Below the pieces are notes generated by a model. The model did no database searches and had not been told where the DNA came from. It saw only the letters and a program-made list of their open reading frames with translations. Below, in pieces: positions 8,025 through 53,006 of a DNA stretch of 55,186 bases (position 1 is the stretch's first letter; each line of letters opens with the position of its first letter). Source of the stretch: a virus (taxonomy: Duplodnaviria > Caudoviricetes); IMG/VR virus record IMGVR_UViG_3300037587_000342, positions 1 to 55,186 of that record. The stretch is one strand, 5' to 3'. The position numbers were made by a program, and so were the translations under genes.

Positions 8025-8212
8025 TGGCGTCGCGAGTAACCAACTGCGCGCGCTGCGGCGAGACGCACGACGCGATCGAGTGGCACGAGTTCCAGTGCCC
8101 CTGCATGGGCCGCACACACTGGTCGGCGTGCCCGACAACCGGCGAGCCGATCCTGATGATGATTGTTCGGGTGGACGCTGTAGACGCACCGTCACCTGAG
8201 GAGGCCACATGA
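8024..8212 (+). CDS. Small Cys-rich protein
   Basis: CARC, CPC, CPTTGEPI. Confidence 0.65.
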   Translation: MASRVTNCARCGETHDAIEWHEFQCPCMGRTHWSACPTTGEPILMMIVRVDAVDAPSPEEAT

Positions 8213-8613
8213 CCGAGAAGCAGGAAACCCCCCAGGCCAAGTTCGAGCGCGAGATGCCCGAGATGGCGGCCCGTGCCTCCAGGCTCGAGATGCAGGGCGT
8301 CCTGATCCTCGTGGCCCAGCTGCCGGCGGACACCATCACATCCGGTGGGATCGTGATCCCCGACAGCGCCAAGGAGCGGCCGAAGGAAGGGCTGGTGCTG
8401 GCGATCGGTGACGGAGCGCGCGAGGACGGGAAGATCATCGCGCTCCGGATGAAGGTGGGGGACCGGGTGTTCTTCCCGGCGAACAGCGGCAAGGCTGTGT
8501 GGCGGGAACTGGACGAACTCGTGGTGATGAACGCTGGGGCCGTGCTTGCTATCGTGAAGCCCGAGAAGGGCTACACAGAGGACTTCTTCAAGGGCAAGGA
8601 GGCAGGCGAATGA
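8209..8613 (+). CDS. groES: Co-chaperonin GroES (Cpn10)
   Basis: TSGGIVIPDSAKERP mobile loop, G.VLAIGDG, KVGDRV.F. Confidence 0.92.
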   Translation: MTEKQETPQAKFEREMPEMAARASRLEMQGVLILVAQLPADTITSGGIVIPDSAKERPKEGLVLAIGDGAREDGKIIALRMKVGDRVFFPANSGKAVWRELDELVVMNAGAVLAIVKPEKGYTEDFFKGKEAGE

Positions 8614-18858: not shown

Positions 18859-18891
18859 AGGGCGGGGGCGTGCCCGGCGCCCCCGCCCTTC
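18859..18891 (+). terminator. GC-rich hairpin after the capsid gene
   Basis: Perfect 12-bp stem AGGGCGGGGGCG/CGCCCCCGCCCT with 7-nt loop; weak U tract. Confidence 0.6.
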
Positions 18892-35757: not shown

Positions 35758-36671
35758 CCGTCCAGCCGCCAGCGATCAAAGGCGCGATGGCCAACACCGT
35801 CTACGCCAGCCACAAGTCGCTCACGTTCGACGGGATCCAGGAGTGGATGGCCAACTTCAACCTGTTTGGGATCTCGACGTTCCCGATTCGGCGCTTCAAC
35901 CCTGTCACCGTCAGCATGTGGGTCAAGAGCACGAAGGCGCTCGCGCCCAACAACGCCCACCAGACCATCGTGGGTCGGTGGTTCCCGACGTTCGGCGGCG
36001 GCCTCGCGATCAACGAGGGCGGCTGGCGCTGGATGATCAACGATATCGCGACGGGGCCAGGCACTAGGCCGCTGCACTTCCACCTCTGCACTCACTTCCT
36101 GAACGGCCTGTGGATCTACTCGAACGTCGATTTCCCGCTGAACCAATGGGTCCACGTCTGCATGACCTACGCGGGCCTCGGGGTCGCCGCGGGGTTGCGC
36201 ATGTATTGGGATGGACAGCCGGTAGCAACCTCAACGATCGGCACTACCACGTGGACCACTTCCGCTCTCAACTCCAACGCCTTCTCGAGCCTCCTGTGGG
36301 GCACGCAATACACGGTTTGGCCCACCGGCCCGGCCGTCCCGGTTGTGCCCCCCATCCTCACGTGGTTCTTCGAGGGACTGATGGACGAGTCTGCGTTCTG
36401 GCGATTCGAGTTGAACGCAACCGAGGTGCTGGACCTCTACAACGGAGGCCATCCGGCCGATCCGTTGCACGTCGGCTTGGCCAACGGGAGGACCGTCGAT
36501 CGCTACTTCCGAATGGGGGAGCACACCGACGGGACGCCCTTCGTTCTGCCGGGCAGCAGCATTAGCTGGGACCGCATGCCCATCTCGCCACCAGCGACCC
36601 TCTCCAACGGCTTCTGGAACAACGACGGGGCGACGCCCCCGCTGCGGGTGAGTGAGGACGTGGCGCCATGA
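35754..36671 (+). CDS. LamG/concanavalin A-like domain protein
   Basis: TVSMWVK, QWVHVCMTY, MYWDG, FEGLMDE.AFW...L...EV..LY. Confidence 0.88.
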   Translation: MTVQPPAIKGAMANTVYASHKSLTFDGIQEWMANFNLFGISTFPIRRFNPVTVSMWVKSTKALAPNNAHQTIVGRWFPTFGGGLAINEGGWRWMINDIATGPGTRPLHFHLCTHFLNGLWIYSNVDFPLNQWVHVCMTYAGLGVAAGLRMYWDGQPVATSTIGTTTWTTSALNSNAFSSLLWGTQYTVWPTGPAVPVVPPILTWFFEGLMDESAFWRFELNATEVLDLYNGGHPADPLHVGLANGRTVDRYFRMGEHTDGTPFVLPGSSISWDRMPISPPATLSNGFWNNDGATPPLRVSEDVAP

Positions 36672-44247: not shown

Positions 44248-44852
44248 GCCTCACGTTCAACGAGGAGGAGCACGTCTACCGCTGGCAGGGCCGAGTCGTG
44301 CCCTCCGTCACGGCTGTCATCGCGGCGGCCGGCTGCATGGGCGACCTCTCGTTCATCGATCCTTGGTACATGCGCCGGGGCACCGCGCTCCACAAGGCGA
44401 CCAAGCTGTGGGACGAGGGACGGCTCGACGAAGCGACAGTGGACCCAGCGATTGCCCCGCATCTCAGAGCTTGGCGTGAATTCGTGACGATGAATCGGGC
44501 CGATCTTGAGATCCTGGAGAGCGAGCACCCGCGGTACAACGCGACGTACGGCTATGCAGGGACACCAGACAGAATCGCACTGTGGCGTGGGAAGCTGGCC
44601 GTGATCGACTTGAAGGCCGGCGGCAAGATGCCGTTCCACGCTCTGCAACTCAGCGGATATGCCGGCATGATCGATGACTGCGAGGTGCGCCTCGCGGTGC
44701 ATCTTGGTGGTGATGAGAGATGGAAGCTGGAGACCTACGCCGACCGAGGCGATTGGCAGGTCTTCACGAGCGCGCTCGCCCTGTACCAGTGGAAGGAACG
44801 CAACGGGCTCAAGCCCGGGAAGGCAGCGAACAATGGTGGTCGAGACAACTGA
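44244..44852 (+). CDS. PD-(D/E)XK exonuclease (Cas4/RecB-like)
   Basis: PSVT, GTALH, YAGTPD, IDLK, QLSGY. Confidence 0.88.
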   Translation: MSLTFNEEEHVYRWQGRVVPSVTAVIAAAGCMGDLSFIDPWYMRRGTALHKATKLWDEGRLDEATVDPAIAPHLRAWREFVTMNRADLEILESEHPRYNATYGYAGTPDRIALWRGKLAVIDLKAGGKMPFHALQLSGYAGMIDDCEVRLAVHLGGDERWKLETYADRGDWQVFTSALALYQWKERNGLKPGKAANNGGRDN

Positions 44853-45935: not shown

Positions 45936-46140
45936 CCGCAAACTCGTGGAAGGCAGAGAGCGTTACGAGATCGGCGACGGCGCCAAGACCCGAACCGGCG
46001 TGAAGGACCTCGGCGTCACGCTGGTCTGGGGCAAGGGCCGCAAAGTCGAATCCGTCTCGGTGGACCACCGGGTCCTGACCCGCAAGGGCATCGAGAGCCT
46101 GATGCTGCTCGTGAAGCACCGTGAGGAGAAGCGGGGATGA
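45928..46140 (+). CDS. Hypothetical protein
   Basis: AAAGGAG RBS. Confidence 0.7.
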   Translation: MADRKLVEGRERYEIGDGAKTRTGVKDLGVTLVWGKGRKVESVSVDHRVLTRKGIESLMLLVKHREEKRG

Positions 46141-46637
46141 GCCTCATGATCGGCGTCGATCCTGGCGCCAAGTGCGGAATCGCGGTGGTGCGGGAGGCGC
46201 CGAACAAGGTGCCTGAGTGCCTGTGGACCGCGACGGTGGGGATCGACAAGTTGAGTGTGGCGTTGCCGACGTTGCTGGACAGCTGGCGGCTCGACTTCAC
46301 GGTGCCGTTCTGCGTCGAGACCGCGAGCTTCCATGCGCACCGGGGTTCATCGCAACGCAGCGCGACGATCTGTGCTCGGAACGCAGGCTTCATCCACGGC
46401 TACCTGGTCGGTGCTGGTGTCGATCGAATCGAGATCGTGACGGTGGCGCAGACCCGGAAGGCGCTGGGGCTCTCCGGCAACTGCTCCAAGAAGGAGCTAC
46501 ACGCATTTCTGGAGAACCCGTCGGTTGTGTGTGGAGAACGTGGCAGCAACGAGCACACGCGGGATGCGATCGCGATCGCGCTCGCCGGCCACTCTCGGAT
46601 TCGACAGCGGGAAGTTCTTGATCGGGCCCGAGAGTGA
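46137..46637 (+). CDS. RuvC-like Holliday junction resolvase
   Basis: IGVDPG, CVE, GN.SK, H.RDAIAIA. Confidence 0.85.
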   Translation: MSLMIGVDPGAKCGIAVVREAPNKVPECLWTATVGIDKLSVALPTLLDSWRLDFTVPFCVETASFHAHRGSSQRSATICARNAGFIHGYLVGAGVDRIEIVTVAQTRKALGLSGNCSKKELHAFLENPSVVCGERGSNEHTRDAIAIALAGHSRIRQREVLDRARE

Positions 46638-46650
46638 GGCATGATGCGGG

Positions 46651-46780
46651 TGGCAGAGATATGGAACGGACCGCACCCTTCACGACTTCCAAGCAGTCCG
46701 ACCCCGCGCCAGCGGTTCGCCATATCTCTGCCAGAGTGTGGTGCGCGACGCAGCCGGGGTCGGACGCCTTGGGAGCCGTG
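46651..46780 (+). ncRNA. Candidate cis-regulatory structured RNA upstream of the initiator
   Basis: Interleaved perfect inverted repeats of 14 bp (46651-64/46720-33) and 11 bp (46696-706/46755-65). Confidence 0.6.
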
Positions 46781-46781
46781 C

Positions 46782-47462
46782 ATGGCGCGTAAGAAGCGGC
46801 GACCGTCGCCAGCGTTCCCGATGTACCCCAAGGACTTCCTGGGGGACGTGAACACGATCACGATGACCGCCGAGGAGTTCGGCGCGTACTCGTTACTGAT
46901 CCTGCACGCCTGGGAGCAGGGTGCCGAGTTGCGCTACGACCTCGATGAGCTCTCGGCGCTCGCCAGGGTCAAGCGCCCCAAGTTCGACAAGATGTGGGAG
47001 CAGAAGTTGTCCCGGTGCTTCACCGTAGCGCGCAGCAAACGAACCATTTCGAACCCCCGACAGAGACGGGAAGCTGTAAAACAGCGTAGGTATTCTGCAT
47101 CACAATCCACAAAGGCTAGGCAGCGTTGGGATAACGACGATGCTGCGGCAGTGCCGGGGGATAGCCGGGGCAGTGCCGCGGGTATGCCCCCAACTCCTAC
47201 TCCTACTCCTCCTTCATCTCTAGACGTACGTACGTCGGAGGATCTGAGCAGGGTTCGCTGCAACCGCTGTCCGACCGATGGGGAGCACTGGGGGCTGCTG
47301 TACGCCGGCACCAAGGATCAGACAACCTGCCGCTGCAAACGGGGCAAGGCTCGCAAGAAGTGGTACGCGCAGAAATGCGATCGCGAGGAGCAGGACGCAG
47401 GACGTTCACGCGGGAAGCGTGGTGATGGCCCGACGCGGATCGGGCCTGGAGACGTGGCGTGA
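46782..47462 (+). CDS. DUF1376 (YdaU-like) replication initiator
   Basis: PAFPMYPKDFL.D...MTAEE.GAY.LL...W; NPR; PTPTP linker. Confidence 0.85.
   Translation: MARKKRRPSPAFPMYPKDFLGDVNTITMTAEEFGAYSLLILHAWEQGAELRYDLDELSALARVKRPKFDKMWEQKLSRCFTVARSKRTISNPRQRREAVKQRRYSASQSTKARQRWDNDDAAAVPGDSRGSAAGMPPTPTPTPPSSLDVRTSEDLSRVRCNRCPTDGEHWGLLYAGTKDQTTCRCKRGKARKKWYAQKCDREEQDAGRSRGKRGDGPTRIGPGDVA
47145..47220. repeat. Putative origin: 4 x 11-bp iterons plus a pyrimidine-rich tract
   Basis: GCGGCAGTGCC GGGGGATAGCC GGGGCAGTGCC GCGGGTATGCC, then (ACTCCT)x3. Confidence 0.7.
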
Positions 47463-47644
47463 GCGCCAAGAAGATCACGCACTGCCGGAACCCGCGCTGC
47501 GGCAAGCGACTCACGCCCATCCAGATCAAGCGCAAGAACCACTTCTGCTCGCACCACTGCAGCATCTGGGATAAGCGGCATCGGAAGTGGAACACGGTGC
47601 CAGTGGAGTTCGAGACCGTGAAGAGCAGGAGGAACGATGCCTGA
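47459..47644 (+). CDS. Small Zn-finger protein
   Basis: C....C..FCS..C. Confidence 0.65.
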   Translation: MSAKKITHCRNPRCGKRLTPIQIKRKNHFCSHHCSIWDKRHRKWNTVPVEFETVKSRRNDA

Positions 47645-50692: not shown

Positions 50693-51966
50693 AGGACGAT
50701 GCCATTCAGGCAACGGTGATGGCACTGGACAAGATCAGGGCCGAGAAGAAGTTCAAGCACCGCGCCAAGAAGGCGGGGTGGACGGAGAACGAACCCGACG
50801 AGTTGATGCCTCACTGCAAGGATTGTGATTCGCGGGCGGAATGGGCTGGGGGTGTCCGCAGCGATGACGTTCAGGTCGCGCGGAGTGGAGCGCCGCTCAT
50901 TGGCGTGTATCGCTGCACACCCTGCCTCCAGAAGCACCTAGAACAGCAGGAGACGCCGCAAATCGACAGCTGGATCTGCGACGCCAAGTGCGGCACGGTC
51001 ATCAAGATCGCGGTCGATCCACACGCCATTGAGGCCGGCGACTCCGAGAGGCGCTACTGCCAGCCGTGTGCCGAGGCGCGCGGGTTGTGGCCGAAGCCTG
51101 TGGAGCCATTTCCACAGGACACAGAGCCCCGTTCTGCGCCGAACGGAGGCTGCGGCAGGCGCCTCGCGCAACACGAGGATGATGAATACTGCCGCAAGGT
51201 CGCAGTCGCCACGATCAAGCCTGGGGAGAAGATCGGCAACCCGTGGCGAGCGTGCGAAGAGCACACACAGACAGCCGAGAAGGCGAATCTGCCAGTGACG
51301 GTGATCAAGCGCGACATGCCGAAGCCGGTTGCGCCAGGCGGGATCGTGAAGGGCCGGCGCCTCGGGATCACAAAGTCATCGCGTCTCGTTGGTTGCCCCG
51401 AGGGCAAGACGGAGGCGATCGTGCCGCTGCCTCCCGGAACGGAGCTCCCGGTAGTCCTCTATGAATCCTGCGGCTGCTACGACTGCGGGCTCGAGCGAAG
51501 CAACGAGAAGTTCCTGCAGCGCATCGTGCTGGAGTGGCCGAGCGGGCATCGGGAGCCGGCGCGTGCCGCGATCCTCGATCATCGGCTCCACGGGATGATG
51601 GTCGGGGCCAAGATCATCGACCCCAAGCAGGTCAGCGACCGAGATCCCTGGCAGGGAACGTGGTGCATCGCATCGCTGGAGCCGCGGCCAGATGGGAGCG
51701 TGGCTGTTCGGGCGATGAATCAGCGCGGGCGCAACTACACCTTCTGCGGCCCTGTGATTCGTTGGACCCACGACTTCTCACGCTGCTTCAAGATCCAGGA
51801 TGCCGAACGCACAGCGGCGCGCAAGGAAACCGCCGAGAACCCGAGCGAGGAGCGGGTCACGGCACTTCAGCAGCACGCGGACGATGATGTGCGCCGACAG
51901 CGGTACTGGCATCCCGCGCCGGGCCGGCCGGAGCCGCGCGGCTGGGACCGGAAGTTCACAATCTGA
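50689..51966 (+). CDS. Mosaic Cys-rich protein with terminase Walker A-like and TMP-like segments
   Basis: AAGGAGG RBS; several CxxC; PGGIVKGRRLGIT...EAIVPL. Confidence 0.8.
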   Translation: MKDDAIQATVMALDKIRAEKKFKHRAKKAGWTENEPDELMPHCKDCDSRAEWAGGVRSDDVQVARSGAPLIGVYRCTPCLQKHLEQQETPQIDSWICDAKCGTVIKIAVDPHAIEAGDSERRYCQPCAEARGLWPKPVEPFPQDTEPRSAPNGGCGRRLAQHEDDEYCRKVAVATIKPGEKIGNPWRACEEHTQTAEKANLPVTVIKRDMPKPVAPGGIVKGRRLGITKSSRLVGCPEGKTEAIVPLPPGTELPVVLYESCGCYDCGLERSNEKFLQRIVLEWPSGHREPARAAILDHRLHGMMVGAKIIDPKQVSDRDPWQGTWCIASLEPRPDGSVAVRAMNQRGRNYTFCGPVIRWTHDFSRCFKIQDAERTAARKETAENPSEERVTALQQHADDDVRRQRYWHPAPGRPEPRGWDRKFTI

Positions 51967-53006
51967 TGGGCGTAGAGACGGGGATTCAATGGACAGACAG
52001 CACATGGAACGTCGTGCGTGGCTGTTCCAAGGTCAGCGCCGGCTGCAAGAATTGTTACGCGGAGCGGGAGGCCAATCGGCACGGCGGTCCGGGTCGGCCC
52101 TACGAGGGCTTGGTCAAGGATGGCCGGTGGACGGGTGAGGTGCGACTGATCGAGAAGCACCTTCTCGATCCGCTGCGCTGGCAGAAGCCGCGCCGGGTGT
52201 TCGTGAACAGCATGTCGGACCTGTTCCACGAGGAGGTTGCTGACGAGACGATCGACCGCATCTTCGCGGTGATGGCGCTGGCGCCGCGCCACCAGTTCCA
52301 AGTGCTGACGAAGCGCGCAGAGCGGATGCAGGCCTACCTCTCCACGCCGAAGCGGCAGGCAACGGTTCTTGGATGTGCGTGGGAGATGCTGGGGAACACG
52401 AAGTACCGGCTGACGAAATACCGACACGAGAACGTTGTGAGCCGTCCCTGGCCGCTCCCGAATGCCTGGATGGGCGTAAGCGCGGCGGATCAGGAAACGC
52501 TGGAGTCGCGGCTCGACCACCTACACCGGACGCCGGCCGCAGTGCGGTTCCTGAGCCTGGAGCCGCTCGTGGGTGCGATCGACCTAGAGGGCGCTGGCGC
52601 AATCGAACGGGATAGCGTCGGCGGTAACACTCCCGGTGAAGGCGAGTCGTTCACGCGCGGTCTGCTGGACTGGGTGATCGTCGGCGGCGAGAGCGGGCCC
52701 GGCGCTCGGCCGTGCGATGTGGTGTGGGTCGAACGCATCGTGGCAGACTGTGGCACAGCTGGTGTCCCGTGCTTCGTGAAGCAGTTGGGGGGAAACGCCA
52801 CAGATGCCCGTCTGCGAGACGTTTGGGGCCCGACCGGGAAGCACCACTACACCCGGCCATTCGGTGACCCGCTGCTCGACGAGGCGATGGAATGTGATGG
52901 CTACACGGTCACGGACCACAAGCTCAGTCGATTGATCGCTGCCAAGAAGGGCGACAGCCCGGAGCAGTGGCCTGAGCACCTACGGGTGCAGGAGTGGCCG
53001 GCATGA
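51966..53006 (+). CDS. Phage Gp37/Gp68 (DUF5131) protein
   Basis: IQWTD.TWN...GC.KVSAGC.NCYA, FVNSMSDLFH, LTKR, WVIVGGESG, FVKQ.G. Confidence 0.93.
   Translation: MGVETGIQWTDSTWNVVRGCSKVSAGCKNCYAEREANRHGGPGRPYEGLVKDGRWTGEVRLIEKHLLDPLRWQKPRRVFVNSMSDLFHEEVADETIDRIFAVMALAPRHQFQVLTKRAERMQAYLSTPKRQATVLGCAWEMLGNTKYRLTKYRHENVVSRPWPLPNAWMGVSAADQETLESRLDHLHRTPAAVRFLSLEPLVGAIDLEGAGAIERDSVGGNTPGEGESFTRGLLDWVIVGGESGPGARPCDVVWVERIVADCGTAGVPCFVKQLGGNATDARLRDVWGPTGKHHYTRPFGDPLLDEAMECDGYTVTDHKLSRLIAAKKGDSPEQWPEHLRVQEWPA

Follow-up and report, generated by a model that had tools for sequence, protein, structure and literature searches.

The 144-nucleotide (nt) spacer upstream of the DUF1376 gene in the phage record IMGVR_UViG_3300037587_000342 (the whole 55,186-nt stretch is called the window here) carries two interleaved inverted repeats, A and B. 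The most likely explanation is that these repeats form an ordinary translational lock or coupling leader: a structured intercistronic hairpin would bury the start of the DUF1376 gene, and would be opened by translational coupling from the gene upstream, which encodes a RuvC-like resolvase. We hold this reading tentatively, at a rough probability of 45%, and we infer its mechanism from structure prediction and frame geometry. An RNA-level effect had been proposed in an earlier sequence-only reading of this DNA and, as regards translation of the DUF1376 gene, is the most economical view; the pairings and the coverage of the Shine–Dalgarno (SD) sequence reported there also stand, but a stable pseudoknot, an on/off switch, membership of a known RNA family and an antisense RNA are not supported. 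The features concerned are listed below by coordinate.

46137–46637, + strand: gene for a RuvC-like Holliday-junction resolvase, 166 residues, TGA at 46635–46637 (PHROG 1770, E 5.6e-07; PHROG 159, E 6.3e-06)
46634–46792, + strand: candidate 52-codon bridging frame; its GTG overlaps the resolvase stop (GTGA), TAA at 46790–46792
46638–46781, + strand: spacer before the DUF1376 gene, 144 nt, the sole gap in a module of 16 gene junctions
46651–46664, + strand: helix A, 5′ arm, TGGCAGAGATATGG, 14 nt
46686–46706, + strand: helix B, 5′ strand, i.e. an anti-SD stretch (46686–46693) plus the core, extendable back to 46672; pair probabilities 0.87–1.0
46696–46706, + strand: helix B core, 5′ arm, GTCCGACCCCG, 11 nt
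46720–46733, + strand: helix A, 3′ arm, CCATATCTCTGCCA, exact reverse complement of 46651–46664
46736–46788, + strand: alternative hairpin predicted when helix A is formed
46755–46765, + strand: helix B core, 3′ arm, CGGGGTCGGAC, exact reverse complement of 46696–46706
46755–46775, + strand: helix B, 3′ strand, i.e. the core plus 46768–46775, containing the SD sequence GGGAG (46771–46775)
46782–47462, + strand: DUF1376 gene (Pfam PF07120), 226 residues, ATG at 46782, with GGGAG 6 nt upstream

The sequence-only reading had described the 14- and 11-base-pair (bp) pairings as perfect and as crossed in the order A-B-A′-B′, and both statements hold. Its extension of helix B over the SD sequence to the ATG is present too: TCCAAG (46688–46693) faces CTTGGG (46768–46773) with one U·G pair, and CACG (46681–46684) faces CGTG (46777–46780). 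The extended arms (46672–46706 and 46755–46789) are 35 nt long and 80% complementary, cover GGGAG and run past the ATG. Chance levels were taken from 200 dinucleotide shuffles of the whole window, with loops of up to 150 nt. Perfect inverted repeats of at least 14 nt were seen in 13 out of 200 shuffles; those of at least 11 nt averaged 3.8 per shuffle (seven are observed in the window), so the core of helix B is ordinary by itself. A crossed pair of repeats of at least 11 nt was found in one shuffle out of 200, and A and B are two of just four spaced (non-palindromic) inverted repeats in the 55 kb (10-nt seed, distance up to 150). The crossed repeats are real and non-random. Their arm sequences do not recur elsewhere in the window beyond chance. 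A mobile element with terminal repeats was rejected, as the arms are interleaved rather than terminal.

The minimum-energy fold of the + strand RNA (−76.2 kcal/mol, z −2.1, equalled by two out of 200 shuffles) consists of a weak 5′ hairpin (46634–46683) and one long irregular hairpin (46686–46775). The latter is built from 8 bp that include the SD sequence, a 2×2 internal loop, the 11-bp core of helix B and further pairs up to the tip, where the 3′ arm of helix A pairs with 46733–46743, a degenerate copy of the 5′ arm of A; the 3′ arm thus has two mutually exclusive partners. In the free ensemble the SD bases are predicted to be unpaired with a probability of at most 0.02 (paired, at least 0.98), and opening 46768–46787 in a 241-nt context would cost 20.3 kcal/mol. 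By local folding the opening cost of the DUF1376 start region is 11.7 kcal/mol, the fourth highest among the 17 starts of the module; the SD-led starts at 44833, 45928, 47637, 47960 and 48347 cost 3.5–6.6 kcal/mol and the remaining ones 7.2–8.9 kcal/mol. The three starts costlier to open than that of DUF1376 (45480, 47459 and 49084; 12.5–14.1 kcal/mol) are all overlapped, with no SD-like run noticed in the 20 nt upstream, which fits an operon-wide reliance on translational coupling. Around 46634–46646, where the bridging frame starts, the RNA is predicted to be open, at 6.3 kcal/mol (18th percentile). Among 2751 GC-corrected 171-nt segments scanned for structure, 46681–46851 ranks 8th; the segments that begin at 46621 and 46641 come 104th and 69th. 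The − strand RNA folds at −74.6 kcal/mol (z −2.6), the DNA folds have z-scores of −2.0 and −2.6, and G·U pairs make up six out of 58 pairs on the + strand and three out of 48 on the − strand; with z-scores so similar for both strands and for RNA and DNA, folding does not distinguish strand or molecule.

The sequence-only reading took A and B for a pseudoknot, or for a pair of alternative states, by which translation of the initiator would be switched; an antisense RNA might take part, on the model of IncI/IncB plasmids or of P1/P4 immunity. The rarity of crossed perfect helices (one out of 200 shuffles) argues for this, as do the two exclusive partners of the A 3′ arm and, from inferred geometry, loops of 21, 13 and 21 nt that would be long enough to span the stems. 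In growing transcripts, moreover, helix A is the minimum-energy fold for 3′ ends at 46735–46755 and helix B takes over from 46766, making a transient A + B intermediate conceivable. Nevertheless we consider such a switch decidedly unlikely. Helix A alone contributes −22.0 kcal/mol and the core of B with its extension −33.4 kcal/mol; together they come to about −55 kcal/mol before any knot penalty, some 20 kcal/mol short of the nested fold, by a rough hand estimate from helix sums rather than a pseudoknot program. Enforcing helix A (duplex energy −24.2 kcal/mol) gives a fold of −70.6 kcal/mol at a cost of 5.6 kcal/mol, and the start remains paired: the alternative hairpin still holds the AUG and three of the five SD bases (46771, 46772 and 46775, unpaired with probabilities of 0.02, 0.06 and 0.01), and opening the start would still take 15.3 kcal/mol. 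Because the nested fold is far stronger and the start is paired even with A formed, both the stable pseudoknot and the on/off switch are unsupported. The Rfam 15 covariance models gave no match at gathering scores anywhere in the window and only chance-level matches locally (best E 0.22, a plant microRNA model with 21.5 bits against a gathering score of 196), so that membership of a known RNA family is not borne out. As for an antisense RNA, no promoter-like or terminator-like site was detected on either strand of the spacer with a sigma-70-like consensus, which may not be that of the host. Finally, the pseudoknot of the IncI1 system activates translation (PMC8053102), whereas one of the crossed helices here would itself be inhibitory.

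It is possible, from the folding of growing transcripts, that helix A has a transient role during RNA synthesis. A fuller version of this, in which the 14-bp helix A forms first and holds the leader tip, leaving helix B briefly incomplete (or in a strained A + B knot) and allowing one burst of initiator per transcript before the full lock, strikes us as very unlikely.

In the lock-and-coupling reading that we prefer, the spacer would be a structured intercistronic stretch of the operon messenger RNA, in which the long imperfect hairpin (46686–46775, extendable to 46672–46789) buries the SD sequence and abuts the AUG; burial of the SD sequence would make independent ribosome loading at the DUF1376 start hard. 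Expression of DUF1376 would then depend on melting of the hairpin, most simply by ribosomes coming from the resolvase gene. That such ribosomes would end next to arm A was already part of the sequence-only reading, and the in-frame ATG at 46641 and the resolvase stop ending at 46637 are where it placed them. These ribosomes could initiate again at the overlapping GTG (46634), translate the bridging frame across both helices, terminate at 46790–46792 and reinitiate at the AUG at 46782, which would be an obligatory coupling of the leader-peptide/stem-loop type. Helix A would be an upstream competitor for the hairpin tip; rather than part of a stable knot, it is best seen as an intermediate in folding or as a modulator with an effect of about 5 kcal/mol. 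Folding of this kind inside the cell, restriction of translation by the hairpin and translation of the bridging frame are all inferred.

The geometry of the module is in keeping with such coupling. At the 16 consecutive junctions between 43480 and 50366 a start is available −37 to +3 nt from the preceding stop, with overlaps of mostly 4, 8 or 11 nt. The bridging frame ends 8 nt past the AUG at 46782, which gives an 11-nt overlap with the DUF1376 gene, and its two overlaps (−4 and −11) match those at the other junctions. Out of 2000 spacer shuffles, 34% leave this frame open and 9.2% leave both it and that of DUF1376 open; in long genes, 5.2% of codon positions have a stop within four codons in the corresponding relative frame.

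Several observations weigh against the coupling reading. The codon score of the bridging frame is ambiguous (−0.01; 3.9% of in-frame windows score no higher and 1.6% of off-frame windows no lower), and its GC content at codon position 2 is 0.62, where the + strand open reading frames (ORFs) that pass the GC filter all have 0.41–0.57. The frame has no homologue in a shared-word protein search and no gene call in the record, and its geometry was spotted post hoc. The fold z-scores are only about −2, with − strand and DNA folds equally good, and local folding puts the opening cost at the DUF1376 start in the 86th percentile among all 20-mers, which is not extreme at 65% GC; a ribosome-site hairpin in a genome of such composition is in itself unremarkable. 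There is also no comparative support, as the searches for DNA of close relatives yielded none, and the translated stretches upstream, present in two relatives, show no significant similarity to the spacer (E 0.30). In four out of four distant annotated phages (H1 and H6 were left out of this count) there is no spacer: the DUF1376 gene and the gene before it overlap, by 4, 4, 4 and 28 nt. The DUF1376 family thus does not share this element in general.

The searches for relatives covered both DNA and protein. A blastn search of 46000–47500 against phages gave no match, and tblastn against phages gave six records with 29–37% identity. Related loci could be confirmed neither in viral contigs, where they were sought with the DUF1376 protein, the resolvase and a four-sequence alignment, nor in metagenome contigs; two were found in genome contigs, with just 30–32% identity, unusable for comparison. 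Degenerate patterns for the conserved N-terminal peptide of the DUF1376 protein had no match in metagenome or viral contigs. The exact arms of helix A with a gap had no match in viral contigs, and those of helix B matched one, L005, an unrelated 58-kb IMG/VR contig: at 1501–1558 the same two 11-nt arms form a hairpin with a 36-nt loop between ORFs on opposite strands, with a cold-shock-like ORF nearby. The surrounding ORFs are by eye unlike the resolvase or DUF1376, and we take this match as chance. The DNA of the record is listed in one marine-sediment metagenome run, possibly its source, and no RNA run is listed; the contigs of that run contain no variant of the region at 80% likeness. Back-translation of the in-frame upstream part of one close homologue of the DUF1376 protein, P0004, allows 10 out of 14 pairs of helix A and keeps none of three fixed pairs (slid controls, 10–14 out of 14), a comparison of low power whose underlying alignment is non-significant (E 0.30).

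As the start of the DUF1376 gene, the evidence favours the ATG at 46782, based on codon statistics and the N-termini of homologues. The competing starts (ATG at 46641 and 46644) lie in the DUF1376 frame, which is open from the resolvase stop, and would restore a tight junction. However, the 47-codon extension upstream of 46782 has a codon score of −0.32, and just 2.3% of true in-frame windows (mean +0.82) are that low. By frame, the codon log-odds of the spacer are −0.32, −0.01 and −0.27 (phage means, +0.82 in frame and −1.03 off frame), and none of its frames looks coding (the −0.01 of the bridging frame is ambiguous); the resolvase gene scores +0.69 under the same model, trained on the phage itself. 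Three close homologues (P0002, P0003 and P0004; 57–64% identical overall) align from the motif M/V-(A/S)-R-(K/R)-KRRPSPAFP onwards; one of them starts exactly at this motif, with V, and the preceding residues of the other two are unrelated. An invariant Phe lies 5–13 residues from the N-terminus in 57 out of 59 aligned homologues and is residue 12 with a start at 46782 (five of the first 64 matches were left out of this count, three of them with 28–38 extra N-terminal residues by match position). An N-terminally extended protein from 46641 or 46644 is rejected, by its codon score and by the absence of the extension from homologues. The gene call in the record (P0001, 213 residues from the ATG at 46821, i.e. 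Met14 of the 226-residue form) begins 13 codons late and drops the RKKRRPSPAFP stretch conserved in all close homologues; it is therefore too short, and the deposited start is probably wrong. The corrected gene model moves the DUF1376 start 13 codons upstream.

The resolvase and DUF1376 genes share a reading frame, separated by the single TGA and an open 48-codon stretch. A resolvase–DUF1376 fusion by stop-codon read-through is disfavoured, since more than 20 residues N-terminal of the match are present in just 11 of the best 149 other library proteins (maximum 96, P0002). The C-terminal end of the resolvase has no similarity to the N-terminal ends of P0004 or P0002.

It is quite unlikely that the spacer has no function, i.e. 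that it is left over (e.g. from a lost gene or an N-terminal extension) and that high GC and local duplication produced its repeats incidentally. The modest fold z-scores, the ordinary number of 11-bp repeats (3.8 expected per window), the lack of detectable conservation of the spacer sequence in relatives and the DUF1376 frame left open from the resolvase stop, with its two extra ATG codons, speak for this. They are set against the single crossed pair in 200 shuffles, the location in the only gap of the module, the register of helix B with the SD sequence and AUG, and the non-coding score of the in-frame extension (given above).

The protein itself matches the PF07120 profile with 34.7 bits (cut-off 30.1) over residues 12–83 of the 226-residue form, and the family has 3362 library proteins at E ≤0.001. 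An AlphaFold model has a mean predicted local distance difference test score of 79, with block means of 89–98 over residues 11–110, and shows a winged-helix N-terminal domain. Its structural matches are weak and tied (ORC2 winged helix, Z 6.7–6.8; the staphylococcal RepA_N initiator 4pta, Z 6.5; the N-terminal domain of DnaD, Z 6.1), its Foldseek matches have E 0.013–0.14 with none at E ≤0.001, and there were no matches in a PDB sequence search with the DUF1376 alignment or in NCBIfam. PHROGs annotates the protein as ‘primosomal protein’, and in one distant phage the DUF1376 gene is annotated as a replication protein and followed directly by a DnaB gene. Because the structural matches are weak and tied, ‘replication organiser’ is a reasonable label for the modelled protein, though not a proven one. 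Within the linker-coding part of its gene, 47142–47237 contains GGCAGTGCCG twice, 22 nt apart (Tandem Repeats Finder period 11, 2.9 copies), then ACTCCT three times and the palindrome ACGTACGTACGT; conservation of the low-complexity peptide encoded there extends over most of it in P0003 and over its first part in P0004. From its sequence, this segment is a candidate origin inside the initiator gene. The phage lambda O gene likewise has a replication origin within an initiator gene.

Another reading gives the spacer a DNA-level role, as single-stranded DNA hairpins or protein-binding sites beside a replication gene (e.g. a signal for primosome assembly or for single-strand initiation, or a portion of the origin). 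We consider such an element unlikely, even though both core helices are perfectly Watson–Crick without wobble, the DNA folds are as non-random as the RNA folds (the − strand slightly better, z −2.6), PHROGs calls the neighbouring protein primosomal, and its winged helix is tied with RepA_N, DnaD and ORC2 domains (Z 6.1–6.8). The arm sequences do not recur in the window beyond chance; the spacer has no iterons or direct repeats and no AT-rich dip (40-nt GC 0.57–0.78), and the segment inside the gene is a better origin candidate. Moreover, helix B ends exactly on the SD sequence and AUG, which an RNA role would explain and a DNA role would not.

RNase III sites are known in phage intergenic spacers. 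The lower stem of more than 20 bp (8 + 11 bp around the 2×2 loop, with more pairs beyond) could accordingly be read as an RNase III site, a tail-less terminator or a 3′ stabiliser that ends the message of the recombination genes. The other clear hairpin of the phage likewise has no U tract: it is a perfect 12-bp hairpin (AGGGCGGGGGCG n7 CGCCCCCGCCCT, 18859–18889), 11 nt past the stop of the major head gene, and it is likely a terminator or stabiliser of the head-gene message. Processing or termination is nonetheless another unlikely explanation for the spacer, where no intrinsic terminator was called and no U tract follows (the sequence after 46775 is CCGTGCATGG), and where the hairpin includes the SD sequence of the next gene; the next SD-led start after the head-gene hairpin lies instead 60 nt downstream.

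The record as a whole (55,186 nt, 65% GC, estimated completeness 65%) has its assigned genes on the + strand throughout, and its other features are given below.

2–832: DNA methyltransferase fragment, at the edge of the record
about 2–35 kb, + strand: siphovirus-like structural block (small and large terminase, portal, major head, tape measure and tail proteins)
8200–8610: GroES-like co-chaperonin (PHROG 3188)
43.4–50.4 kb, + strand: recombination/replication block (two exonuclease-family proteins, RuvC-like resolvase, DUF1376 protein, HNH endonuclease)
51888–53003: DUF5131 protein (266 bits)

Neither an integrase nor a repressor turned up in the ORFs scanned, which, like the remark on a missing repressor in the sequence-only reading, says little as the record is only about 65% complete.

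A full-text literature search found the term DUF1376 in six papers, in none of them in the title or abstract. If the lock-and-coupling reading is true, this marine-sediment phage doses its replication organiser as many plasmids and genomic islands do, and the control logic extends to DUF1376, a widespread but uncharacterised family. If the co-transcriptional timer with a coupled 52-codon leader frame were true, it would be an independently evolved phage counterpart, placed before a DUF1376 protein, of plasmid pseudoknot/leader-peptide replication control.

Four kinds of known systems can be compared with the spacer. The antisense immunity RNAs of phages (P1 c4 and P4 CI) also mask ribosome sites near replication or antirepressor genes; the element here differs in that it has no Rfam match, its arms do not recur elsewhere in the window, and neither a separate small-RNA gene nor repeated target sites are present. 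Ribosome-site hairpins of the T4 gene e type silence read-through transcripts in phages, and share with the spacer an SD sequence buried by a 5′ strand upstream in the same transcript. They rely, however, on a promoter inside the hairpin, and none was detected in the spacer, where the promoter type of the host may differ from the consensus searched. The pseudoknot of IncI1/IncB-type plasmids is short, whereas the crossed helices of the phage are 14 and about 19 bp long, with one of them the inhibitory helix, the knot predicted to be unstable and no antisense gene visible. The pseudoknot control of repZ/repA in IncI1, IncB and IncL/M plasmids is otherwise similar, in that an RNA structure lies at the rep ribosome site with crossed pairing possible, and a leader frame overlaps the rep start (in IncI1, repY at 36448–36537 overlaps repZ, which begins at 36525; PMC4288162).

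The closest likeness is to leader-peptide/stem-loop coupling, as in SGI1 S004-repA, R1 tap-repA and IncB repB-repA. In SGI1 the leader ORF overlaps repA by its last codons, both its stop and the start of repA are covered by a long inverted repeat, and the leader has to be translated in cis (PMC7826253). The phage has the same arrangement: a small frame (46634–46792) that ends a few codons past the downstream start (46782), a long inverted repeat over that start that reaches the stop of this frame (to 46789), and an SD sequence predicted to be buried, for which translation of the frame in cis would be needed. It differs in that the candidate leader frame would itself be coupled, through GTGA, to the resolvase gene within an operon, that this frame has 52 codons, no clear coding signature and no antisense RNA seen with it, and that the downstream product is a DUF1376 winged-helix protein and not a plasmid Rep. 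The proposed type of control is known; its setting, before a DUF1376 gene in a phage operon, is new.

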